In this document: positions 1,950-54,360 of the stretch, piece after piece
Layout: each line of letters opens with the position of its first letter
Numbering within the stretch: position 1 is the first letter of the stretch
Virus record (IMG/VR): IMGVR_UViG_2648501839_000008
DNA: 64,000 bases
DNA from: a virus
Taxonomy: Duplodnaviria; Heunggongvirae; Uroviricota; Caudoviricetes
Strand: one strand, 5' to 3'
The notes under the pieces: generated by a model
Told to the model about the DNA's origin: nothing
The model's input: the letters and a program-made list of their open reading frames with translations, nothing else
Database searches by the model: none
Position numbers and translations under genes: made by a program

Positions 1950-3644
1950 TTAATTATTAAGCAATCTGCTCACACGTAGTTTGTTAAGACTTGATCTAGA
2001 GGCCAGTTTCGTTAATGCACCTATTGCTTTATTCGTGATTTTTTGCTGTTCTTCTGTTAGTTCTTGCATACTTTTGAATCTGAGCAACCCCTTTCTCACT
2101 AAATCCAAAGCATCCTGATTGCGGGATAGTATCCACTTTAAATAATCATCTTCAGAGAAACTGTTAAGATATGCTATGTCACTATGATTAAATTTGCCTT
2201 CAATTATTTTGTATAAAACATTCTCTAAATTAGTCTCTTCAGGCTTCTTATCCATCAATTTTTTTTGAATTAGCAGACCTAACTTTTCGTTACCAAATAT
2301 CTCTACATACAAATTCCGAAAAGCAGTATAAGCATCATCTTGGCTAACAAAGGCATCTGCATATGCCTCTATATAACTATCACAATCAATCTCCAATCTA
2401 TTTAAGATATCAATCAAGCCTATGAAGTGAGCAACAGGTATGTGTGAAAGATTGTCGTTAATTACACATTTTATCTTAGAAATAAACTCAGATTCATTGT
2501 CCTTGAATGAGTCACTAAAAATATCCCAAACATTGTTAACATCACATAAAGCCTTGTGTTCTTTATATTGTTTATTTTTTTCTTCTATTATACCTCGAAT
2601 ATTGCTTTCAGTAGAAAGATAACCATTCTTGAGATAAAAATCTATGTCATCATCGAAAGCAATTTCCGCTCGTTCATAAATAACATCAAGACTATTAATA
2701 AATGAATATACAGAATCATCCTTTTTATCATCTAACATGTAATCAAATACATGTATGTTTTTAATTGATTCTTTAAACAAGGCATAATCAACACCTGGAA
2801 CACCAGAATAGTAAACCACTGAAAACAGAACCAATCTATTGATAAAACTTTCTCTAACCTTATCCTCTGCCAAGCTTAGCTCATTCCTAAGATTAACCAG
2901 AGATGTTTTTATTTTATTTAATATACGGATATTTTTAATGCCTAAGTCATTTGCTAAGACTTTTAACAAAAGAAAATCAGAATCAGTTTCATAAAAAACT
3001 TTACGTAAGTTCTTCTCAGGCGTAGGATCGTATTTTATTTCGACATCAATTACTTTTTCTCTGTACTCTAAAAACTGTTTTTTTGCAGTTTCATCATGTA
3101 AATTATCTTCATTTAAAATTAGAACAACTTTGCAACCTTTTCTTCTTGCTAATTCATCAATTACCCCCATAATTTCTTTAACTTCTAGCGAATTACCTTT
3201 TCTTTCAACATCATCAATACAAACCAAATAATTATTAACAAATTTATACTCAAGAGATGACAGCAGGTTATCTGTTTTGAACCCAAAAAAATCGTTCTTT
3301 CCGAAATGTATTAAAAATTTTGACAAGGAGTTGTATTTCAACCATCCCCAAAACCCATTTCTATAACGAATCATAGTTCGATCCGTTTCAGATAAAATTA
3401 GTTCTTTATATTTCTTTTCATTAATTGGTGTGGCACAATGATAAAGAGCTTTTTTAATATCACCAATAGAGTTAACCCCAAACAAAGAAACATACGAATA
3501 TGCATTAAAATCTAATCCTTCAGAATGCTTAGTATAAAAACTATTCCAATAATGAGTTTTACCAACGCCCCAATCTCCTTTTATGACGGCAACCCGATGA
3601 TCTGAAACTAGAAAATTTTTTAGAAATGATTCTATCGATTCCAT
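1950..3644 (-). CDS. KAP-family P-loop NTPase (candidate defence or abortive-infection protein), AT-rich cargo gene
   Basis: N-terminal Walker A VIKGDWGVGKTH, Walker B-like LVCIDDVERKG about 140 aa later, long helical C-terminal region; AT-rich codon usage unlike neighbours; probable ATG at 3644 with AAAGGA RBS (track start 3653 is TTG). Confidence 0.55.
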   Translation of the reverse strand: MESIESFLKNFLVSDHRVAVIKGDWGVGKTHYWNSFYTKHSEGLDFNAYSYVSLFGVNSIGDIKKALYHCATPINEKKYKELILSETDRTMIRYRNGFWGWLKYNSLSKFLIHFGKNDFFGFKTDNLLSSLEYKFVNNYLVCIDDVERKGNSLEVKEIMGVIDELARRKGCKVVLILNEDNLHDETAKKQFLEYREKVIDVEIKYDPTPEKNLRKVFYETDSDFLLLKVLANDLGIKNIRILNKIKTSLVNLRNELSLAEDKVRESFINRLVLFSVVYYSGVPGVDYALFKESIKNIHVFDYMLDDKKDDSVYSFINSLDVIYERAEIAFDDDIDFYLKNGYLSTESNIRGIIEEKNKQYKEHKALCDVNNVWDIFSDSFKDNESEFISKIKCVINDNLSHIPVAHFIGLIDILNRLEIDCDSYIEAYADAFVSQDDAYTAFRNLYVEIFGNEKLGLLIQKKLMDKKPEETNLENVLYKIIEGKFNHSDIAYLNSFSEDDYLKWILSRNQDALDLVRKGLLRFKSMQELTEEQQKITNKAIGALTKLASRSSLNKLRVSRLLNN

Positions 3645-3695
3645 TAGTATCAATCCTTTAATTCATATATTGGGCGTAACAAACGCCCAATATAA

Positions 3696-4055
3696 TCAAC
3701 CTTTCTTCATCAACTCTCGTTTAATTTCATCGGTACGCATCGTAACGTCGGCAGCTGTGATCGCCTCGTTAAGCTTCACGATGTCCTCGATTTCCTGCGG
3801 TGACTTCTCTGCCAGATGGAAAATGGCTGCTCGAATCACGTCAGAACGAGTGAACTTCTCGAAGCGAGGGATGAACTTCATCATCTCCAGCAGTTCGAAG
3901 TATTCGTCTTCCAGTGACATTGTGCGGCTTTTAATTTTCTCTTTGCCACGAGTCGGGCGTCCCTGTGGTCTGACTGGTTGGCGCAAAGGAGTTGTGTTCT
4001 TAGCCGGTGCATCAGGCTCTTTGCGCTTTGCTAGGTCACCCATTTTCATGGACAT
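3696..4055 (-). CDS. ParG-like ribbon-helix-helix partition protein
   Basis: 119 aa, basic disordered N-terminus plus C-terminal RHH-like segment; start overlaps parA stop (TAATG coupling). Confidence 0.45.
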   Translation of the reverse strand: MSMKMGDLAKRKEPDAPAKNTTPLRQPVRPQGRPTRGKEKIKSRTMSLEDEYFELLEMMKFIPRFEKFTRSDVIRAAIFHLAEKSPQEIEDIVKLNEAITAADVTMRTDEIKRELMKKG

Positions 4056-4723
4056 TATTCTTCTTCCTCCAGACTCAACAGATAATCTACAAATTCTTCA
4101 AACTCGGCTTCAGCCTTTTTGTCGCGCTCGCTACCGGTCATTTCGAAGATAGAACGACCAGACTCTTCCGCATCATCGTAGACGTTGCGGTTATATAGAT
4201 TGACTGGCGCAGACTCGATGCCAAACGTCTCGACAATCTCTTTAGCCGCCAGAATGCGAGACACTTGTGATGGCAAAGCCGGGCACTGGTTCATGACCGC
4301 GCGGACCTTCACTTTATCGTTTACATTACGAACATTGTCGATAATAGGATCGATGTCACGCAGAGATTTCAAATCACGACGCTTAGGACGAAGCGGGATA
4401 ATGATAACGTCGGCCATCAGCATCGCTTGTCGCTGAATTTCGGAGTCAAAGCCACCAGCATCTACCACTACAAACTCAGCTCTACCCTGAAGCGATTTTA
4501 GGTGCTTAATGATGTCATCCTGGACGTATGCAAAAGGAATCAGCTCAAGGTCTTCGTTCTGTCGACGGTCTTCACACCAGCTCGTTGTCGTGCGCTGAAT
4601 ATCTATATCGGTAATATAAACCTTCTTCTTCTTTTTGACTTTCAGGCAAACGGCAATTTGCTGGGCAACGGTGGATTTGCCAGGCCCGCCCTTTGTGCCG
4701 CCAACCACAAAGATCTTGGTCAT
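4055..4723 (-). CDS. parA: ParA/MinD-family partition ATPase
   Basis: Deviant Walker A GGTKGGPGKST at the N-terminus; 222 aa, small type-Ib ParA size; RBS AAGGGA. Confidence 0.7.
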   Translation of the reverse strand: MTKIFVVGGTKGGPGKSTVAQQIAVCLKVKKKKKVYITDIDIQRTTTSWCEDRRQNEDLELIPFAYVQDDIIKHLKSLQGRAEFVVVDAGGFDSEIQRQAMLMADVIIIPLRPKRRDLKSLRDIDPIIDNVRNVNDKVKVRAVMNQCPALPSQVSRILAAKEIVETFGIESAPVNLYNRNVYDDAEESGRSIFEMTGSERDKKAEAEFEEFVDYLLSLEEEE

Positions 4724-6020: not shown

Positions 6021-6197
6021 GTGTCCACCTTAGCCGGTATTAACTTAATGTCATAGCGGCGACCCTTGTCAGGGTTTAGAGGCTACGAGTATGCGTCGCA
6101 GCATTAATGCAAGGGATGATTTACTTGACATCCATGTGCCAAATCTACCTTGTGCTCTAATAATATGCAAATTTTATGTTAGAAAACTCCTCTTCTG

Positions 6198-6428
6198 TTA
6201 TGGTACTTTTCTGCCCCATCCACACAATCGCTCCCCTATCATATTGTGAAAAAGTACCTCTCTTTCAGTCTCTTCGGTCATGAGATCATCACGGCTGATG
6301 TATAGCGGTGTAGCCGCATCGCAGAAAAGCACACCAGCGGGTTGAGGCTTAATCACGCAACCACTTATTGTGCAACTCATGATGAACAGTAGAAGCATCC
6401 TTGCTCCGTAACTCATCAAGTGTTTCAT
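6198..6428 (-). CDS. o-spanin (Rz1-like outer-membrane lipoprotein), overlapped with the i-spanin gene
   Basis: Alternative frame across the Rz-like gene; signal peptide with lipobox ...FIMSCTISGC; start placed at internal Met (track ORF is 6198-6506). Confidence 0.4.
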   Translation of the reverse strand: MKHLMSYGARMLLLFIMSCTISGCVIKPQPAGVLFCDAATPLYISRDDLMTEETEREVLFHNMIGERLCGWGRKVP

Positions 6429-44539: not shown

Positions 44540-44560
44540 GATTAATTCCTTATCGTAAAT

Positions 44561-44593: not shown

Positions 44594-44743
44594 TTGTACG
44601 AATAAGGCGTCAAAGTGGAAAGTTGCGGTAGCCGGACGGGAACAGGTGGGTTTGTCGGTTGCCTGGAGGTAAGAGGTTGGTGTTTTTAGCCTGAGGGAAG
44701 CAGGATGGTCATTTAAGGCCACCAGCATTGGTGACCTTATTCT

Positions 44744-45031
44744 TCAGTGGAGCAGACCGATGTCGATGGTATCCCCTGAATCATCCACACGGATCATCAG
44801 CATGGCAAAGGCGTTTAGTGGATAGCTTGCGTGCCATTCAGGGAAGCGGTCATCTCGCATGAAGTCGGCAATGTCGTAAACGCATCCCTCAAAGTGGAAG
44901 AATCGCGTGCTTACCTGCTCATCATAATCCACATGATCCATTTCTTGCTGTTCTGTTTCCGGCAAGTCCAGCCATGATTCGAGGAATACATTTTGTGCTT
45001 TGGTGGTAATGGTGAAATCAGTCATGAGCAT
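44744..45031 (-). CDS. Small highly acidic early protein (95 aa)
   Basis: ORF track; about 20 Asp/Glu versus 5 Lys/Arg. Confidence 0.4.
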   Translation of the reverse strand: MLMTDFTITTKAQNVFLESWLDLPETEQQEMDHVDYDEQVSTRFFHFEGCVYDIADFMRDDRFPEWHASYPLNAFAMLMIRVDDSGDTIDIGLLH

Positions 45032-45044
45032 ATCCTCACTGCGT

Positions 45045-45110
45045 AAACATGTTGTTTTCTTGTTGTTGTAATTATCGCAGCGAGATAAAGGCAGAAAACA
45101 AATTGTTATC
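45045..45110 (-). promoter_or_regulatory. Class-A sites (two palindromes flanking TGCGATAATTA)
   Basis: aaacatgttgttttct + tgttgtaattatcgca + gaaaacaaattgttatc. Confidence 0.5.
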
Positions 45111-46140: not shown

Positions 46141-46470
46141 TTACGCGAATACCTCAAGAAACTCCTGAACGTCCCAATGCTGGACGAGGTGAAGATAGAC
46201 CTTAGAAATCACGTCATTTTCGCTATCGCATGTGAAGTAGTACTTCTGGCTGCGGTTGTATGTGTCCACACAAAATTCGCTCATATCCATAAAGTCAGCA
46301 TCTTCACCCATGTCGCAAATCATCAAAGCAGGTGCGTCATCACGAGTCATCAGCTCAAGCACCCACCGCGAATTGATCAGAGTGGAAGACCAACCTTCTA
46401 ACTCATAAAACTGATCAAACTCTTTTTGAGTTAATTTCTTGATTTGGTTGATGTCGATATTTGCAAACAT
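46141..46470 (-). CDS. Small acidic early protein
   Basis: ORF track trimmed to the ATG at 46470 (AAGGA RBS); the track start lies inside the class-A palindrome. Confidence 0.4.
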   Translation of the reverse strand: MFANIDINQIKKLTQKEFDQFYELEGWSSTLINSRWVLELMTRDDAPALMICDMGEDADFMDMSEFCVDTYNRSQKYYFTCDSENDVISKVYLHLVQHWDVQEFLEVFA

Positions 46471-46482
46471 AAAGCAATCCTT

Positions 46483-46520
46483 AAACAACATGTTTTCTTG
46501 ATGGTGTTATTATCGCAATA
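46483..46520 (-). promoter_or_regulatory. Class-A site
   Basis: aaacaacatgttttct + gatggtgttattatcgcaat (TGcGATAAT on the minus strand). Confidence 0.5.
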
Positions 46521-46819
46521 ACGCACAGGCGAAAAAGGATTTTATTCCGGTGAATGTGGTTTTGGCAGTGAGTTTTCAGGTTCAGTACCGAGTACACTTT
46601 TTACATTATTCTGATTTAGTGGCTGGTGGGCAGAATAATCCTCTCCCCGAAAACCTACTGAAATCGATTGTGACCCGTTGGCTGTCTGGCACAATTACGC
46701 TGTAGCTGGGCATTCAGAGGGAATCCAGCGGTAAGCAAGTCCGCCTACGTGAGCGCCTCTCTTCTTCCCGCACATTACAGGTGGGTAGCCGCAACTCTCC
46801 CTCTCGCTATACCGGTACG

Positions 46820-46960
46820 CCACCTTTCCTGAACCGGCATCGAGCCTTCTCCCGAAATCCACACAGGCAACTCGACCGTTTCCCTGAAAACCTCCAGCCG
46901 TTCCCCGAAGGCAACCCAGCCGTTTCTGTAGCGGGATGCAGCCTTTTCCCTGTATGGACC
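46820..46960. repeat. Iteron-like direct repeats with ~21-22 bp periodicity, cluster 2
   Basis: Five to six copies of cAGCCgTTtCCCtGaa-like units (46842, 46873, 46895, 46917, 46938). Confidence 0.55.
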
Positions 46961-46999
46961 GAAGGCTGACCGTAGGGGTGTTACGGGGGATAAAATCAG

Positions 47000-47960
47000 G
47001 AGTTGAATAAATACGAAAAAGGAGGCGACACCCCTCCTTCCCTCCCCACTTATACATACCTGGCTTCTTCGCTATGCATGTTGTGTTTTATCTGTCTCAA
47101 CCTCTCTATAGGCGTTAATGCTCACTCCTTCCAGAATGTTCTATACGGCGACTATTTCTGTTGGTGAATTGGGTGTGTTGTTTTCTCTGTCGGTGTATGT
47201 GGTTTCGTTCGTTTTGCGGTGGTTCTTCTATGGGGTGTTCTCGTCGTTTTGGTGATTGTTCTTCTCCATGTATGGAGTAATGGCAGGTGGGCGAATCCTT
47301 TCGTTATTGTGTTTGAGTTGTTTGTCTGGAGTGTGTGAAGGGCTTTTGTAGTTATTCGTGTATTGGGTAATGGCGTTTCCCGTGATTGTTATGTTTCGTG
47401 TCTTTTGGGATTGAGAGAATCCTTGCGGTTACAGGCTTCGTTGGGTTTTCAGTGATTCTGGTGTTTCTTCGCTGTTTGGGGAATGGCGTGTCGTGGGTAT
47501 CGCGCGTATGAATGTTTTCGGATTGCCTGTGAAAGTTAGGTTGGCTGTCCGGTAGCCTGGGGAGAAGAGGTGGGTCTTTTCGGTAGCCTGCCATAAAGAG
47601 GTTGGTTGTTTTGGGGAATGGCATGTGTGTTATTTAGTTGTTTTGTTATAGCTGAAAATAAGTTGTTTATATAGTTATGTAACGCAATGGGAGTGATTTT
47701 GAGCGTGTGTTTTTTCTTGGTAGTGTGTTGGGTCGTCTGTGGTGAAAATTGGACGCTGTGGCGCTGTCTGCTGCGTAGAATTACGGGTATAAGAAGTGAT
47801 GTGTGAATACGTCAATTTTTTAGACCAAATCGGGTGAAAGCGTTGACGTTTCGTTGATCTGTTATTTAGTTGTTTTCTTATTGGTATAAACAACGTTAAC
47901 CTATTGATATTTAAAGGTGTGATTGCAGGTATGGAAGAAGAGTAGTGGCGATCAACGGAT
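47000..47960. repeat. Noncoding, strand-biased (G+T-rich on plus) degenerate repeat region
   Basis: No credible ORF; recurrent GGGGAATGGCGTGT-like and CGGTAGCCTGG..GAGGTGGGT-like units; the latter also occur at 44615-44690. Confidence 0.5.
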
Positions 47961-48022
47961 TCTTATAGAAAAGAATCAAATTGTGACCGCCATTATCAAC
48001 TGATTGATTAAGCTAATTACAC

Positions 48023-49252
48023 TCAAACATCCCCGTTCTTAATCCACTGCCTGACTTGCTCGTCTTGTGCGACTTCTTTCTCATGTTTGGCAATATACAA
48101 GTCTGGCAATAGGGGTGGAGCGAATTCAGGCTCTGTCGCACGCCACTTTTCATATGCGTCACGCATGGATTTCTCAACATTCCAATGCTCCAACTCTTGG
48201 TATTCAATCGGCCAGTTATCCTGCAATCTCTTCACTGCATTAGCCAGGTCGTATCGGAAGTAAGGATTAAGACCAATGAAATTACCAGCCAGCATGTCAT
48301 CAACCTCCTTCACTCTGGCAATCTTAGAAAACTTACCAATAGCAATGTTGAGGTCCCAATCTGACACGAACAACAAAAGTGCTGCAAATGCCAGAAACTT
48401 AGCTTCCCCGTATGCTCTGTCGCTAACCGTTTTTGTCTGAAACTCAATGTAATTGCCCATCACAAAACTAGTAAGCTTACAGGTATTACTTATCTCGTCC
48501 TCCAAATGCGATGGATCGAGAATTGTGCGGTCACGATTATTGTTTATGTGTTCTAAGATTACAGCAATGTCTCTATGTGAGACTGAAATTTCACGCAATT
48601 GCTGGAGAGTCTTGATGTGAACTCTTAGCACCTCTTTGTCAATCGCACGCTTCCAAGAAAAACCAGGCACAGTAACCTGAATGGGCGCGAAAGGTAGAAT
48701 ATCAGGAGTTGTCCATGCTAGATATGCATCACGTAACCCACTAATATAATAAAGCCAGTCTAAATGCTCGCTTTCTAACCATATTTCAAATGTGGAATCC
48801 TTTCGCTTATTGAAGAACCATTCCCTCATCTGCCACATTTTTTCTTGAGTAAATATCCCTTCCTGTATGCCGGCACAGACCAGCTTTCGTATTACCTGCG
48901 AATACTTTGTTCGATCTTTTGTGAATGAGACAAGGTGCTGCTTCACCTCAGATGTTAGTCTATCTCCATAGAAATCACATGATGGATGATGGCCTTGACC
49001 ATCTTCACCGGTAAATCTGAAATGCGCCTTCTTGTGATAGCCACCATTCCTAGTGGCTCTAACGAACGAACCACCTCCAACTTTGCAAATGGGGCAGATG
49101 ATATCGTCACGGGCAATAGCATGAACCGAGCTGTCATCTAAATTCTTTAGCGCCAAGTACTGCTCAGGATCGACTTCTTTTTGTAACGATTTTGAAAAAG
49201 CGGTATCAGTCATTCCAAGCTCCGAGCAAGGGGTTATTTGTTCAATTATCAT
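48023..49252 (-). CDS. Hypothetical protein (409 aa) with N-terminal Cys/His cluster
   Basis: ORF track; ...CPICKVGGG...HHPSCDF... possible zinc-binding motif; AT-richer than the structural genes. Confidence 0.45.
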   Translation of the reverse strand: MIIEQITPCSELGMTDTAFSKSLQKEVDPEQYLALKNLDDSSVHAIARDDIICPICKVGGGSFVRATRNGGYHKKAHFRFTGEDGQGHHPSCDFYGDRLTSEVKQHLVSFTKDRTKYSQVIRKLVCAGIQEGIFTQEKMWQMREWFFNKRKDSTFEIWLESEHLDWLYYISGLRDAYLAWTTPDILPFAPIQVTVPGFSWKRAIDKEVLRVHIKTLQQLREISVSHRDIAVILEHINNNRDRTILDPSHLEDEISNTCKLTSFVMGNYIEFQTKTVSDRAYGEAKFLAFAALLLFVSDWDLNIAIGKFSKIARVKEVDDMLAGNFIGLNPYFRYDLANAVKRLQDNWPIEYQELEHWNVEKSMRDAYEKWRATEPEFAPPLLPDLYIAKHEKEVAQDEQVRQWIKNGDV

Positions 49253-49383
49253 TCGGAATTATTTACTGTCTCGCCCAGTTTCACGTCATTTTATTCCCTA
49301 GTCTAGCTTTTCTAGGGTATACAGCTTATTACAAGCTCCTCATTATTAACTGTTTCCGTAACTCATTGATCCGCTTATACACT

Positions 49384-49683
49384 CTACCAACACCAGCACT
49401 CAAGCCCTTCAACGATCGGCGCACCACAATCAAAATGTACAGAGTCAAAGCCTACATCAAGTACTTTCTGAATGTTAGCAATCGCGCCTTCGGATATACC
49501 ATATCGACGCAAGTCGTCTTTCCAGACATCATCCTGTAACCCGGCGTGGACAATACAACCGCCATCAATTTGTGAAACCCAATCCAGCTCATTGCTTGCG
49601 ATCATGAATCGGCGAGCATCTTCCTCTGATGTATGAGATGAACTGATCAATGCCACCTGGTAGGCTTGGGTAATGTTCAACAT
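49384..49683 (-). CDS. Hypothetical early protein
   Basis: ORF track trimmed to the ATG at 49683 with GGAG RBS. Confidence 0.4.
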   Translation of the reverse strand: MLNITQAYQVALISSSHTSEEDARRFMIASNELDWVSQIDGGCIVHAGLQDDVWKDDLRRYGISEGAIANIQKVLDVGFDSVHFDCGAPIVEGLECWCW

Positions 49684-49695
49684 TTCAACCACTCC

Positions 49696-49762
49696 GAAAC
49701 AATTTGTTTTCTTATGTGGCTTATTATCTCAATCAACAAAAGGTAGAAAACAAATTGTTTTA
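49696..49762 (-). promoter_or_regulatory. Class-A sites (two palindromes)
   Basis: gaaacaatttgttttct ... ttattatctc ... gaaaacaaattgtttta. Confidence 0.5.
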
Positions 49763-49797
49763 GGGCTTGTGTAAATCAGGAGGGATTGTGTCTATAT

Positions 49798-49825
49798 GAA
49801 AAATGCCCAGCGTGTTGCCGGGCAT
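49798..49825 (-). terminator. Rho-independent terminator of metG
   Basis: ATGCCCGG...CTGGGCAT stem plus TTTTT on the minus strand, 20 nt after the metG stop. Confidence 0.7.
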
Positions 49826-49845
49826 TGCGAACAGAGGTTGCTTAA

Positions 49846-51879
49846 TTACTTAACCTGGTGGCCAGGTTTAGCACCAGCATCCGGGCTTAACAGGAAGATA
49901 TCTTTCCCGCCGGGGCCAGCAGCCATCACCATACCTTCGGAGATGCCGAAGCGCATCTTACGCGGAGCCAGGTTAGCCACCATAATGGTGTGACGACCAA
50001 TCAGTGCCTGTGGGTCTGGATAAGCAGAACGGATGCCTGAGAAGACATTGCGTTTTTCACCGCCGAGATCCAGCGTCAGGCGCAGCAGTTTGTCAGAACC
50101 TTCAACAAACTCTGCGTTTTCGATCAGTGCCACGCGCAGGTCAACTTTGGCAAAGTCGTCAAAGGTGATGGTTTCCTGAATCGGGTCGTCTGCCAGCGGG
50201 CCAGTAACTGGCGCGGCAGTAGCTTTCACTTCTTCTTTAGACGCTTCCACCAATGCTTCCACCTGTTTCATGTCGATACGGTTATACAGTGCTTTGAACG
50301 GATTCACTTTATGGCCCAGCAGCGGTTGCTGGATGCCATCCCAGGTCAGTTCCGTATTCAGGAATGCTTCCGCACGTTCTGTCAGTTTCGGCAGTACCGG
50401 TTTCAGGTAAGTCATCAGCACGCGGAACAGGTTGATGCCCATTGAGCAAATCGCCTGCAGGTCAGCATCGCGACCTTCCTGTTTTGCGACTACCCAAGGA
50501 GCCTGCTCGTCGACATAGCGGTTAGCCAGGTCAGCCAGTGCCATGATTTCACGGATAGCTTTACCAAATTCGCGGCTTTCCCACGCTTCACCAATCACTT
50601 CAGCGGCATCAGTGAAGGTTTTGTACAACTGCGGGTCAGCCAGCTCGCTTGCCAGCACACCGTCAAAACGCTTATTGATAAAGCCAGCGTTACGGGACGC
50701 CAGGTTAACCACTTTGTTCACGATATCGGCATTCACACGCTGAACGAAATCCTCCAGGTTGAGATCGATATCATCAATGCGCGAAGAGAGTTTCGCAGTG
50801 TAGTAGTAACGCAGGCTGTCAGCGTCAAAATGATTCAACCAGGTGCTGGCTTTAATAAAGGTGCCGCGAGACTTGGACATCTTCGCGCCGTTCACCGTCA
50901 CATAGCCGTGAACAAACAGGTTGGTCGGCTTGCGGAAGTTGCTGCCTTCCAGCATGGCAGGCCAGAACAGGCTGTGGAAGTAAACGATATCTTTACCGAT
51001 GAAGTGGTACAGCTCGGCGGTGGAGTCTTTCTTCCAGTATTCATCGAAGCTGGTAGTGTCGCCGCGCTTGTCGCACAGATTCTTGAAGGAACCCATGTAG
51101 CCAATCGGTGCGTCCAGCCAGACGTAGAAATATTTACCCGGCGCGTTCGGAATTTCAAAACCGAAGTAAGGTGCGTCGCGGGAGATATCCCACTGTTGCA
51201 GACCAGATTCAAACCACTCCTGCATTTTGTTTGCCACCTGCTCCTGCAACGCACCGCTGCGGGTCCATGCCTGCAACATTTCGCTGAAAGAGGGCAGATC
51301 AAAGAAGAAGTGTTCAGAATCACGCATTACCGGGGTAGCACCAGAAACCACCGATTTCGGCTCGATCAGTTCAGTCGGGCTGTAGGTCGCGCCGCAAACT
51401 TCACAGTTATCGCCGTATTGATCTGGCGCTTTACATTTCGGGCAGGTGCCTTTCACAAAACGATCCGGCAGGAACATGCCTTTTTCCGGGTCGTACAACT
51501 GAGAGATAGTGCGATTTTTAATAAAACCGTTCTCTTTCAGGCGAGTATAGATAAGCTCAGACAACTGACGGTTCTCTTCGCTGTGCGTCGAGTGATAGTT
51601 GTCATAGCTGATGTTAAAGCCTGCGAAATCAGTCTGGTGTTCCTGACTCATTTCGCCAATCATCTGCTCCGGTGTGATACCAAGTTGCTGTGCTTTCAGC
51701 ATGATCGGCGTACCGTGGGCATCGTCGGCACAGATGAAATTAACCTCGTGGCCGCGCATTCGCTGGTAACGAACCCAGACATCAGCCTGGATGTGCTCCA
51801 GCATATGGCCGAGGTGGATTGAGCCGTTAGCGTACGGCAGCGCGCACGTCACCAGAATTTTCTTCGCGACTTGGGTCAT
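49846..51879 (-). CDS. metG: Methionyl-tRNA synthetase
   Basis: 677-aa translation from [26 protein letters not shown] (HIGH-type motif) through KMSKS to the C-terminal tRNA-binding domain; enterobacterial MetRS; true ATG at 51877-51879 (track ORF extended upstream). Confidence 0.95.
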
Positions 51880-52036
51880 AGTAGGCATTACTTCTTTGTA
51901 GTGAAAAGGGGCTTGATAGTAACAAAATGGCCTTATGTCTGCCATGTGATAACAGCATTTCTCATAAATGATTAAATGTCGCAGCTGGAGTACACTACAA
52001 GGCGACAATTGCGCAAATTAAAATAAAGGAGACGGG

Positions 52037-53137
52037 ATGAGCGAGTCCAAATCGCCGGATGCCCTGAGAGCAATGGTAGCCGGTACGCTGGCTAATTTTC
52101 AGCACCCAACCCTGAAACACAACCTGACTACGCTTAAAGCGTTACACCATGTTGCGTTGATGGATGACACACTGCATGTCGAACTAATCATGCCTTTCGT
52201 GTGGAATAAGCCTTTTGAAGACCTGAAAGAGCAATGTAGTGGTGATCTGCTCCGTATCACTGGCGCAAAGGCTATTGACTGGAAGCTGTCGTACAACATT
52301 GCCACGCTTAAGCGCGTCAAAAACCAACCAGGCATTAATGGTGTTAAGAATATTATCGCCGTAAGCTCAGGCAAGGGCGGTGTAGGCAAATCGTCCACAG
52401 CAGTAAACTTGGCACTGGCTTTGGCTGCTGAAGGTGCGAAAGTTGGTATTTTGGATGCCGATATCTATGGTCCATCAATTCCAACCATGCTGGGCGCGGA
52501 AAACCAACGTCCAACCTCACCTGACGGTACTCACATGGCACCTATCATGTCTCATGGCCTGGCAACCAACTCTATTGGTTATCTGGTCACCGACGACAAT
52601 GCAATGGTGTGGCGTGGACCGATGGCCAGCAAGGCGCTGATGCAGATGTTGCAGGAAACTCTATGGCCTGATCTGGACTATCTCGTTCTCGATATGCCGC
52701 CGGGCACTGGTGATATTCAGTTGACGCTGGCGCAGAACATTCCTGTAACTGGTGCGGTTGTGGTAACTACGCCGCAAGACATCGCGCTGATCGATGCGAA
52801 GAAAGGCATTGTGATGTTCGAAAAAGTCGAAGTGCCGGTACTAGGTATCGTCGAAAACATGAGTGTGCATATTTGCAGTAACTGCGGTCATCACGAGCCA
52901 ATTTTTGGCACCGGTGGCGCACAGAAACTGGCCGAGAAATACAACACGCAGTTGTTAGGCCAAATGCCACTTCATATCTCTCTTCGTGAAGATCTGGATA
53001 ACGGAACACCAACCGTTATTAGTCGTCCAGATAGCGAATTTACGGCTATTTATCGTGACCTCGCAGATCGCGTTGCTGCCCAAATGTATTGGCAAGGTGA
53101 AGTAATACCTGGCGAAATCGCATTCCGCGCAGTGTGA
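52037..53137 (+). CDS. apbC: Fe-S cluster carrier ATPase ApbC/Mrp
   Basis: Deviant Walker A SGKGGVGKSS, CxxC motif ...HICSNCGHH..., divergent from metG as in enterobacterial chromosomes; RBS AAGGAG. Confidence 0.9.
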   Translation: MSESKSPDALRAMVAGTLANFQHPTLKHNLTTLKALHHVALMDDTLHVELIMPFVWNKPFEDLKEQCSGDLLRITGAKAIDWKLSYNIATLKRVKNQPGINGVKNIIAVSSGKGGVGKSSTAVNLALALAAEGAKVGILDADIYGPSIPTMLGAENQRPTSPDGTHMAPIMSHGLATNSIGYLVTDDNAMVWRGPMASKALMQMLQETLWPDLDYLVLDMPPGTGDIQLTLAQNIPVTGAVVVTTPQDIALIDAKKGIVMFEKVEVPVLGIVENMSVHICSNCGHHEPIFGTGGAQKLAEKYNTQLLGQMPLHISLREDLDNGTPTVISRPDSEFTAIYRDLADRVAAQMYWQGEVIPGEIAFRAV

Positions 53138-53174
53138 TAAAAAGGTGGTGCAATGCACCACCTAAACAGTTCTC

Positions 53175-53564
53175 CTACATCACAGGACAATCATCAAACT
53201 CGCCACTTCTTGCGTCGTTGATAATGTGAGTGATCACACCAAACACGGCATTGCTGCCCGTGCATCCATCATCATCCTTTGGCAATGCTTCCTTCTTACC
53301 AGTTCTTAAATCCTCCAGATGCTGACGTGGATACTTCCGGTATCTTTTTACGCGATATTCCCCATCCAGAGCACATACAAGAAGAGATCCATCAACAGGA
53401 GTCAGTGAGGAATCGACCACCAGCAATGCACCCTGCAATATTCCCTCACGATGATGACTATCAGCCGCCCTCATGAAGTAGGTCGCTGAAGGATGTCTAA
53501 TTATCTGCTGATCAAGAGAAATACGGCTCTCAGCATAATCCGCCGCAGGAGAAGGGAAGCCCAT
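53175..53564 (-). CDS. UmuD-like (LexA/S24 peptidase family) protein
   Basis: C-terminal domain aligns with the UmuD/LexA catalytic core (Ser in ...AADSHH..., Lys in ...RVKRYRK...); SOS box immediately upstream. Confidence 0.65.
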   Translation of the reverse strand: MGFPSPAADYAESRISLDQQIIRHPSATYFMRAADSHHREGILQGALLVVDSSLTPVDGSLLVCALDGEYRVKRYRKYPRQHLEDLRTGKKEALPKDDDGCTGSNAVFGVITHIINDARSGEFDDCPVM

Positions 53565-53580
53565 AATACTCGCCTCTTAA

Positions 53581-53600
53581 TACTGTATATGCATACAGTA
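53581..53600. promoter_or_regulatory. LexA (SOS) box
   Basis: TACTGTATATGCATACAGTA = CTGT-N8-ACAG consensus, about 17 nt upstream of the UmuD-like start. Confidence 0.75.
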
Positions 53601-53894
53601 TATGTTGAAGCTATATATTTTTGAACTCTATCTCTTAAAAAAGATGTTAATAAGATGCTAACTATTGAAAGGCATAAATATATACAATTCCAACAAACGT
53701 TATTTTTAACAAATTTTTACTTCCCATTGACTTTCCCAGACTCCTTGTCTGAACTAATGTCCGCGGAAACCACTTTTTCCTTTACGAGTTATCCACAAAG
53801 TTATGCACTTGCACATAGTCTCTATAAATCCTATCTTAATTCGCAAGACACTGATGTTGCGGTATTGTGGGTACATTTGGTTAAAAACGGACAT

Positions 53895-53928
53895 TAAAAA
53901 AGCCCAGTTGACTAGGCTGGGCTTTTTA
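53895..53928. terminator. Bidirectional rho-independent terminator
   Basis: AAAAAAGCCCAG...CTGGGCTTTTT. Confidence 0.6.
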
Positions 53929-53959
53929 AAAGGAAACAGAGTTTGCGCCTCTGTTCCTG

Positions 53960-54157
53960 AGCCATAAGTATCTGGCGACTGAGCTAAGATTAACCGAATG
54001 TACTGGATTCATCAAGAAACGTTGAGCCGTCATGCTAGGTAATAATGACCATTTACCAAACATCGTTGTTCTCAAAGAAGATTTAAGTCCAGGTTTTTGG
54101 TGACTCTAAAACCTTACCTTAACTCGAAATCGTGCCGTAAGTATCTGGCGACTACAG
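53960..54157. repeat. Direct repeats (gtaagtatctggcgact x2; aaatcgtgccg x2) in a noncoding region
   Basis: Copies at 53965/54136 and 54126/54246. Confidence 0.5.
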
Positions 54158-54325
54158 ATATTGCAACTGCAAAGGCAAGCTCAAAGGTATTTGCAGCTAG
54201 GTGCGATAAAACTAAGTGAGGCCTATAGTGCTTAACTTACTTTTCAAAATCGTGCCGCCTATGTTCGCAATCATCGAAGCGATCATTGAGTACGTCAACC
54301 AGCGCCCATAATGCTAGTTGTTACC

Positions 54326-54350
54326 GGCCCCATCCAAATGGGGCCATTTT
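54326..54350 (+). terminator. Hairpin terminator
   Basis: GGCCCCATCCAAATGGGGCC followed by ATTTTATT. Confidence 0.5.
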
Positions 54351-54360
54351 ATTGTATTGA

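Follow-up and report, generated by a model that had tools for sequence, protein, structure and literature searches.

A metG-apbC cassette in the cargo slot of an SSU5-supergroup phage-plasmid, with signs of recombination with host alleles

Housekeeping genes carried by a phage-plasmid

We analyzed a stretch of 64,000 nucleotides from a tailed virus (IMG/VR record IMGVR_UViG_2648501839_000008; the whole stretch is referred to here as the window) in which two enterobacterial housekeeping genes, metG for methionyl-tRNA synthetase (MetRS) and apbC (also called mrp) for an iron-sulfur cluster carrier, lie divergently between phage-type genes. The pair is very probably a moron cassette carried by an SSU5-supergroup phage-plasmid. 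An old capture followed by gene conversion would account for its history, and autonomous transcription would allow it to supply extra MetRS and ApbC to the host. Phage-plasmid metG has already been published (Tam et al. 2024), and the feature is therefore known cargo of a known lineage. Since the cassette itself is already known, the only potentially new element is the recombination by which it appears to track its host.

The window is part of an SSU5-supergroup phage-plasmid

Comparison with complete records identified the window as part of a known Escherichia coli SSU5-supergroup phage-plasmid of the pECOH89 / pLF82-Cyrano type. From position 304 to 64000 it is colinear with AP024133.2 (SP15_P2), a closed circular plasmid of 111.6 kb, at 94-99.4% identity, and between 49000 and 54000 it is 100% identical to AP024133.2, 98.7% identical to pECOH89 (NC_023916.1), and 96% identical to Cyrano. 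Feature annotation of the window gave tail, tape measure, terminase, ParB, and helicase genes along with rnhA, nrdAB, and thyA, and its placement in the supergroup follows from colinearity with named complete members that includes the tail, tape-measure, terminase, ParB, and replication-associated genes. The relatives are closed circular plasmids of ~110 kb, and the window itself is a 64-kb fragment. The plasmids pECOH89, pLF82 (Cyrano), p09EL50, and SP15_P2 are all colinear with it at 94-100% with the metG-apbC cassette and its junctions identical, the differences being a recombination tract in metG (Table 1) and short stretches, 6096-6313 and 44724-45083, where other sequence has been substituted. 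The announcement of pECOH89 leaves metG unmentioned.

The cassette is widespread in this lineage. PLSDB contains 159 plasmids that cover at least 80% of 49000-54000, and 197 of 5,426 complete E. coli genomes carry this focal region of ~5 kb, always on replicons of ~110 kb. Four phage records contain it as well (Cyrano, PhiR41_1, and two named CMS-2020a). The cassette with both of its junctions recurs in ~160-200 complete plasmids plus phage genome records. Virions of Cyrano have been detected by quantitative PCR and transmission electron microscopy, and the element was present at 5.5 copies per chromosome in E. coli LF82 (PMC9928086). These comparisons show a single circular element, of a type that also exists as virions, to be the holder of the cassette. 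A first-pass annotation made from the sequence alone had offered the capture of a chromosomal metG-apbC segment by one mobile element as one of its explanations, and the colinearity with AP024133.2 and the recurrence in closed plasmids bear this out.

A smaller relative was found in E. albertii. The 62-kb circular record p3RM15115 belongs to the same replicon cluster and has kept metG-apbC, while humD, the gene to the right of the cassette in the window, is absent. Its length is far below the usual ~110 kb, and it may be a deleted, defective derivative that has retained the cassette. Several larger records were considered as relatives and rejected. The plasmids pNJS001-2 (E. coli, 438 kb) and pKLP00155_4 (Klebsiella pneumoniae, 257 kb) contain whole chromosomal neighborhoods, including btsSR and the yeh fimbrial operon, that are unrelated to the two-gene capture, and they may be chromosome-derived replicons or misassemblies. 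Salmonella plasmid records of 300-500 kb with metG-apbC likewise contain chromosomal neighborhoods and are unrelated.

The cassette ends at the two stop codons and occupies a variable slot

Alignment to reference metG-mrp loci confined the homology with the K-12 chromosome to 49845-53133, an interval bounded by the two stop codons and 88.3% identical. The same edges were obtained against 80 species-representative chromosomes, with the right end of chromosomal homology falling at 53133-53144; these were the best 80 GTDB representatives, and E. coli, E. fergusonii, and Salmonella representatives are not among them. The flanking genes, a DUF5983 gene on the left and humD on the right, are of phage type as first annotated, and the possibility that they are conserved chromosomal neighbors of metG fell away, as chromosomes have yehE and yehF/DUF4132 in these places instead. 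By this comparison the cassette is cut from an enterobacterial chromosome exactly at both stop codons. Its G+C content is 50-52% across metG and apbC versus 43-45% in the flanks.

Related elements without the gene pair define the site. The E. coli phage-plasmid pBHD6 (CP141793.1), which has no metG, aligns with the window as far as 49774, the match resuming at 53175, and its slot is filled by 919 bp of other cargo, including a DUF4145 gene, followed by humD. In pHCM2 from Salmonella Typhi, the slot contains small open reading frames (ORFs) and ydfZ. Because these relatives hold other cargo there, the alignments mark 49775-53174 as a variable cargo slot, or "moron" cassette. Two properties expected of a moron were thus seen, namely presence or absence at one site among related elements (pBHD6 and pHCM2) and, as predicted from the sequence, a promoter of its own with terminators that insulate it from the phage operons (the native intergenic region and the hairpins at 49802-49826 and 53143-53163).

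The junctions themselves are not chromosomal in character. The left junction segment had no match in the 80 species-representative chromosomal loci, but a homologous segment is present in the Salmonella phage-plasmid CP053410.1. The metG terminators of E. coli, E. albertii, Salmonella, Citrobacter, and Enterobacter chromosomes are different hairpins, and among 100 loci examined the phage-plasmid hairpin pattern was seen only in metG-bearing phage-plasmid loci. At the right, P1 and pBHD6 homology begins at 53175-53185. The first-pass annotation had given each gene a terminator of its own, which is correct for metG. The hairpin that follows apbC is oriented for humD, and by this orientation it is assigned as terminator to the convergent humD and not to apbC; it would end the humD transcript, and apbC would therefore be insulated from antisense transcription. 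No insertion sequence (IS), integrase, target-site duplication, direct repeat, or bounding inverted repeat was found at the junctions, in agreement with the earlier statement that neither an IS nor an integrase marks them, and only a pair of operator-like palindromes stood out.

metG and apbC appear to have different histories

The two genes are not equally related to those of Escherichia. At the nucleotide level, metG is 94.1% identical to that of K-12, 92.7% to E. albertii, and 87% to Citrobacter, whereas apbC has the same ~81% identity to each of K-12, E. albertii, and C. werkmanii, the K-12 and E. albertii apbC genes being 89% identical to each other. Synonymous divergence (dS) between the window apbC and that of K-12 is 1.3-2.1. 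The G+C content at third codon positions is 0.50 in apbC versus 0.61-0.65 in chromosomes, and that of metG is 0.61. The divergent promoter region between the genes is 57% identical to K-12 versus 74-79% to Citrobacter. In the alignment, the 47 bp adjoining metG are Escherichia-like and the remainder is Citrobacter/Salmonella-like, with a stretch of ~24 nucleotides that is absent from Escherichia. The sequence history of metG is in this respect incongruent with that of apbC and the intergenic region.

Within metG, a tract of recombination could be delimited by comparison with pCP027358, whose cassette is otherwise the same (Table 1). Over 50381-50853 there are two mismatches in 473 bp (99.6% identity) to the metG alleles on the chromosomes of E. 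coli RM14723 and GF130, and identity is ~94% outside this interval. A patch of this type is found in eight plasmids at at least 99% identity and in ~25 chromosomes at 95-99%. Phage-plasmid copies have exact runs of 239-344 bp in common with chromosomal alleles, for example 296 bp between PhiR41_1 and Z0423 and 344 bp between a Shigella sonnei copy and K-12, against a 99.9th percentile of ~200 bp for exact runs under a null of uniform 5-6% divergence. In some copies of apbC, the conserved central part of the gene includes short patches with greater similarity to K-12. The ends of apbC have 74-77% identity to K-12, compared with 99-100% among phage-plasmids.

The chromosomal metG alleles concerned are a minority (RM14723, GF130, and Z1323HEC0423; ~25 of 5,400 genomes). 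Their 5' half is 97-99% identical to K-12, and over 50146-50745, in the 3' half, they are 91.5-94% identical to K-12; in the interval 50381-50853 they are near-identical to some phage-plasmid copies. From these alignments, exchange may also run from plasmid to chromosome.

In CP053410.1, a Salmonella phage-plasmid belonging to the same replicon cluster, metG-apbC occupies the corresponding slot of a backbone that is 67-80% identical to the window. The two elements have in common the operator pair, the left junction of ~70 bp, and the non-chromosomal terminator, and in both the last metG codons read xTT AAG TAA, in place of the GTG AAA TAA of the two host chromosomes. The interior of the Salmonella cassette is close to the Salmonella chromosome, with 93.3% identity in metG, 161/164 positions in the promoter region, and 97.2% in the 5' part of apbC, and its metG is 86% identical to the E. 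coli phage-plasmid copy. Comparison of the two sequences thus shows that, despite the common left junction, each cassette has an interior similar to chromosomal sequence from the genus that hosts it.

To account for this pattern, we propose that an ancestor of these lineages captured the genes once, long ago, from an enterobacterium other than Escherichia. Recurrent gene conversion, in which the cassette recombined with the homologous copy on the resident chromosome, would afterward have made metG Escherichia-like. Replacement would have been limited to stretches similar enough to recombine, and the diverged apbC and most of the promoter region would have escaped conversion and drifted toward the lower G+C content of the element. 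The cassette could keep recombining because a homologous chromosomal copy exists. It seems reasonably likely, on the alignments, that a single capture took place before the Escherichia and Salmonella elements split and that the interior was then repeatedly overwritten by resident alleles, in which case metG would "track" its host and the element could ferry metG segments between strains. If this is true, recombination would explain the high variability of phage-plasmid metG copies, a mobile copy of a core gene could stay host-matched without selection for matching, and exchange between plasmid and chromosome could confound metG-based typing or genome-wide association signals.

Host-like interiors could also result from independent captures in each host genus, with the Escherichia and Salmonella cassettes as separate recent acquisitions. 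The identity of the Salmonella cassette to the Salmonella chromosome (93-98%) and of the E. coli phage-plasmid metG to E. coli (94%) would be expected in that case, and the right junctions of the two lineages do differ. We consider this course of events unlikely in view of the slot, the 70-bp left junction, the non-chromosomal terminator, and the derived last metG codons, which are the same in both lineages. In addition, a non-Escherichia promoter region and apbC stand beside an Escherichia-type metG, and a single capture from Escherichia cannot yield both. Finally, a conversion tract is seen directly between near-identical sister plasmids.

Both proteins are intact and under purifying selection

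The annotation of the pair as a full-length MetRS gene with a divergent apbC/mrp agrees in its coordinates and in both family matches. MetRS scored 1019.8 bits (cut-off 587) against the NCBIfam equivalog NF001100 over residues 4-677, contains the Pfam domains tRNA-synt_1g, Anticodon_3, and tRNA_bind, and has the HLGH and KMSKS motifs and the zinc knuckle CPKC...CEVC in its translation. With a full-length match, HIGH/KMSKS signatures, zinc knuckle, and anticodon-binding and C-terminal tRNA-binding domains, it has what is expected of a methionine--tRNA ligase. ApbC scored 759.3 bits (cut-off 348) against NF008669 and, besides this full-length match, contains its anticipated Pfam domains, the deviant Walker A motif GKGGVGKS, and the CxxC cluster-binding motif in CSNCGHH, as expected of an ApbC/Mrp carrier; its N-terminus is three residues shorter than that of the chromosomal protein. 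At the amino acid level, the window MetRS is 98.8% identical to K-12 (94.1% for the nucleotide sequence) and 99.4% identical to E. albertii. No tRNA gene was found in a tRNA scan of the window, and there is consequently no tRNA-Met partner for MetRS there.

Among five phage-plasmid copies of metG, pairs differ by 42-107 synonymous versus 1-4 nonsynonymous substitutions, with a ratio of nonsynonymous to synonymous rates (dN/dS) of 0.003-0.026. Among five copies of apbC, differing pairs have 13-35 synonymous and no nonsynonymous differences, and one pair is identical. The reading frames were intact in all phage-plasmid copies examined (9/9 for metG and 5/5 for apbC). By these counts, strong purifying selection keeps both proteins intact, and the cassette reads as an essentially wild-type enzyme pair under selection, neither a decaying passenger nor a diverged resistance paralogue.

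An altered enzyme, whether for inhibitor resistance or through neofunctionalization, was considered and rejected. Eight residues differ between the window MetRS and that of K-12, none of them in the catalytic motifs, and most are common to E. albertii or Citrobacter.

We know of no phage function for MetRS or ApbC, which together with the low transcription of metG in an LF82 lysogen would fit a neutral hitchhiking passenger without a role that is heading to decay. Such a passenger is highly improbable given the intact frames in all examined copies, the large excess of synonymous over nonsynonymous differences, the retention of the cassette across elements of E. coli, Shigella, E. albertii, E. 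fergusonii, E. marmotae, and Salmonella, and the existence of a published phenotype, as far as this is relayed in PMC12452169.

Possible contribution to the host and relation to published systems

In the plasmid state, the cassette would be transcribed autonomously and would supply extra, essentially wild-type MetRS and ApbC. An effect on survival would then come from dosage or from allele mixing, with no new enzymatic property. The MetRS of E. coli is a homodimer, and because of this the plasmid and chromosomal subunits could combine.

Expression has been reported for the sister element in LF82. In RNA sequencing of stationary cells in lysogeny broth (LB), the apbC homologue was listed as a moron at ~92 fragments per kilobase per million (fpkm), 9x the prophage background, humD was at ~148 fpkm, and metG was at ~16 fpkm or ~1.6x the prophage background (PMC9928086). 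Chromosomal metG mutants or lowered metG expression raise persistence (PMC11004401). According to the summary in PMC12452169, Tam et al. 2024 (medRxiv 10.1101/2024.10.27.24316207) described phage-plasmid metG in Shigella sonnei as creating a sub-population that survives antimicrobials. A 2025 preprint (bioRxiv 10.1101/2025.09.12.675607) names the element pWPMR2 and records it from 18% of S. sonnei as well as from E. coli clonal complexes CC131, CC23, and CC73.

The pWPMR2-type metG of Tam et al. is likewise an auxiliary metG on an SSU5-group phage-plasmid. A United Kingdom S. sonnei plasmid, CP104415.1 (107 kb; possibly pWPMR2 itself), has the same metG-apbC-humD order as the window, with 98.4% identity in apbC and the intergenic region. 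Its MetRS has the private changes G134C, A410T, A556V, and D565E, which are absent from the window MetRS, and the latter has T112/A151/T275/T276 at positions that in the S. sonnei copy are S/S/S/V, as in E. coli/Shigella.

The cassette also has several points in common with phage morons as the concept is used in PMC9928086, including its own promoter region, flanking terminators, deviating G+C content, and presence/absence polymorphism. Expression in the lysogen, another moron trait, was reported for the sister element in LF82, clearly for apbC and weakly for metG. It is unlike the usual virulence, exclusion, or defense morons in being a core housekeeping pair, one gene of which is essential. 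The IleRS genes mupA and mupB (NF000257/NF000258) are similarly extra aminoacyl-tRNA synthetase genes on mobile replicons, but they encode highly diverged, inhibitor-insensitive paralogues, whereas the window MetRS is 98.8-99.4% identical to Escherichia enzymes. Because MetRS is near-identical and its catalytic motifs are unchanged, inhibitor resistance through an altered target is unlikely on present sequence comparison. Giant viruses and some large phages encode aminoacyl-tRNA synthetases as well. In contrast to those, the gene here has the look of a recent host allele and sits on a temperate phage-plasmid. No tRNA-Met gene accompanies it in the window, and phage-plasmid metG is described in published work as active in the lysogen.

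With the element in ~3-4% of complete E. coli genomes and common in epidemic S. sonnei, a working copy of an essential aminoacyl-tRNA synthetase gene is being carried, and recognition of the cassette matters for surveillance given the published link to antimicrobial survival.

Several points weigh against the capture, conversion, and dosage proposed here. The donor search did not identify a donor, the best apbC match being 82% at the nucleotide level among the best 80 GTDB species representatives. Phage-plasmids hosted by E. albertii had no E. albertii-type tracts and so gave no third example of host tracking. The direction of individual tract transfers can be judged only indirectly, because the RM14723-type chromosomal alleles are themselves mosaic relative to K-12, and the argument for a single capture depends on one Salmonella phage-plasmid. 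With regard to function, the weak metG transcript in LF82 may mean that dosage effects are small or condition-dependent, and the role in antimicrobial survival is reported second-hand, by way of PMC12452169.

Features in and around the cassette

Table 1. Coordinates of the cassette, its junctions, and adjoining features (positions in the window)
Feature	Position	Strand	Description
DUF5983 gene	49384-49683	minus	Left neighbor, 163 bp from the metG stop codon
Operator-like palindrome pair, 16 nt, AAACAATTTGTTTTCT / AGAAAACAAATTGTTT	49697-49760	minus	Brackets the promoter of the DUF5983 gene; inverted repeat 100% complementary
Left junction segment	49775-49845 (71 bp)	minus	metG terminator hairpin and T-run
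metG terminator	stem 49826-49802, then T-run	minus	10-bp stem with 6 GC pairs; terminator scan
metG	49846-51879	minus	677 aa, full-length MetRS, Escherichia-type; ORF listing and translation
metG recombination tract	50152-50938		Contains all 53 differences between the window and pCP027358; rest of the cassette identical
Divergent metG/apbC promoter region	51880-52036 (157 bp)		Native, came with the genes
apbC/mrp	52037-53137	plus	366 aa, iron-sulfur cluster carrier P-loop ATPase; diverged old copy
Right junction	53138-53174 (37 bp)		Resembles neither chromosome nor P1
Hairpin after apbC	53143-53163	minus	T-run on minus strand; terminator scan
humD (UmuD-like S24 peptidase, P1-type)	53175-53564	minus	NF051876, 219.8 bits; 38 bp from the apbC stop codon

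A dispersed promoter/operator motif and the neighboring genes

The palindrome pair listed in Table 1 is the last conserved backbone to the left of the slot, where backbone homology ends at 49774. It belongs to a motif, AAACAATTTGTTTTC, that has 23 matches in the window with at most two mismatches versus 0.43 expected, so that the earlier observation of the same promoter/operator motif on both flanks of the cassette was correct. The palindrome AAACAAnnTGTTT has 16 good sites between 1003 and 63193. They immediately precede genes that run leftward and are found to the left and right of the cassette as well as in other parts of the window. The sites include those at 44560, 45045, 45999, 46483, 49697, 49748, 58842, 61750, 62464, and 63193. 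On the minus strand the complete module reads GATAAT-N8-10-AGA-AAACAAnTTGTTT-N10-25-(ribosome-binding site)-ATG and is found upstream of at least 14 leftward genes. From this distribution the motif is the element's own scattered promoter/operator and not a junction signature, and it is on both flanks of the cassette because these belong to a single element. The module probably marks a repressor regulon or an early-promoter class of the element. The C1 operators of P1 are dispersed in a comparable layout.

The same distribution bears on the earlier suggestion that two related mobile elements flank a short chromosomal island. The motif on both flanks is what such an arrangement would predict, but its spread over the whole element (1003-63193), the contiguity of the flanks around the other cargo of cassette-less pBHD6, the end of chromosomal homology at the stop codons without yehE or yehF neighbors, and the recurrence of the junctions in complete plasmids and phage records refute it. 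A chimeric contig, produced by an assembly error that fused a piece of chromosomal metG-apbC to phage-like sequence, has the abrupt change in gene type and G+C content at both edges as its sole point in favor and is likewise refuted, given that many circular plasmids closed independently of one another, as well as phage genomes, reproduce both junctions exactly, that 63.7 kb of the window is colinear with one plasmid, and that the cassette is unlike every chromosome (88% identical to K-12 overall and 81% in apbC).

To the right of the cassette, humD has 83-85% nucleotide identity to the humD genes of P1, P7, and D6. A LexA box, CTGTATATGCATACAG, was read from the sequence at 53584-53599 in its promoter, and a promoter-like site at 53625-53597 overlaps this box. 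The similarity to P1, P7, and D6 (again 83-85%) extends over 53175-53672, including humD and its LexA-box promoter, and the segment is absent in CP053410.1. Because of this likeness and this absence, the humD segment is, by comparison, a mosaic piece common to two groups of E. coli phage-plasmids.

Other features of the window

At 46500-48020, the window contains 1.5 kb without annotated genes that is strongly G+T-rich on the plus strand (GC skew +0.32 and AT skew -0.32 at 47001-48000) and 77.6% conserved with pHCM2. No Rfam hit and no significant tandem repeat were found in this interval, and a weak 9-nucleotide array (score 32) lies just outside it at 46400-46422. With gathering thresholds applied, the Rfam scan was empty.

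At 1950-3653, on the minus strand, an AT-rich island (31-36% G+C) encodes a 567-residue KAP-family P-loop nucleoside triphosphatase that matches the PADLOC candidate defense family PDC-S49 (E = 2.8e-22). The gene adjoining it, at 4055-4723, encodes a ParA/MipZ-like ATPase. Finally, the non-coding interval 53900-54360 to the right of humD contains two repeated sequences, GTAAGTATCTGGCGACT at ~53966 and ~54141 and AATCGTGCCG at ~54128 and ~54248, and a terminator-like hairpin is located at 53901-53918.

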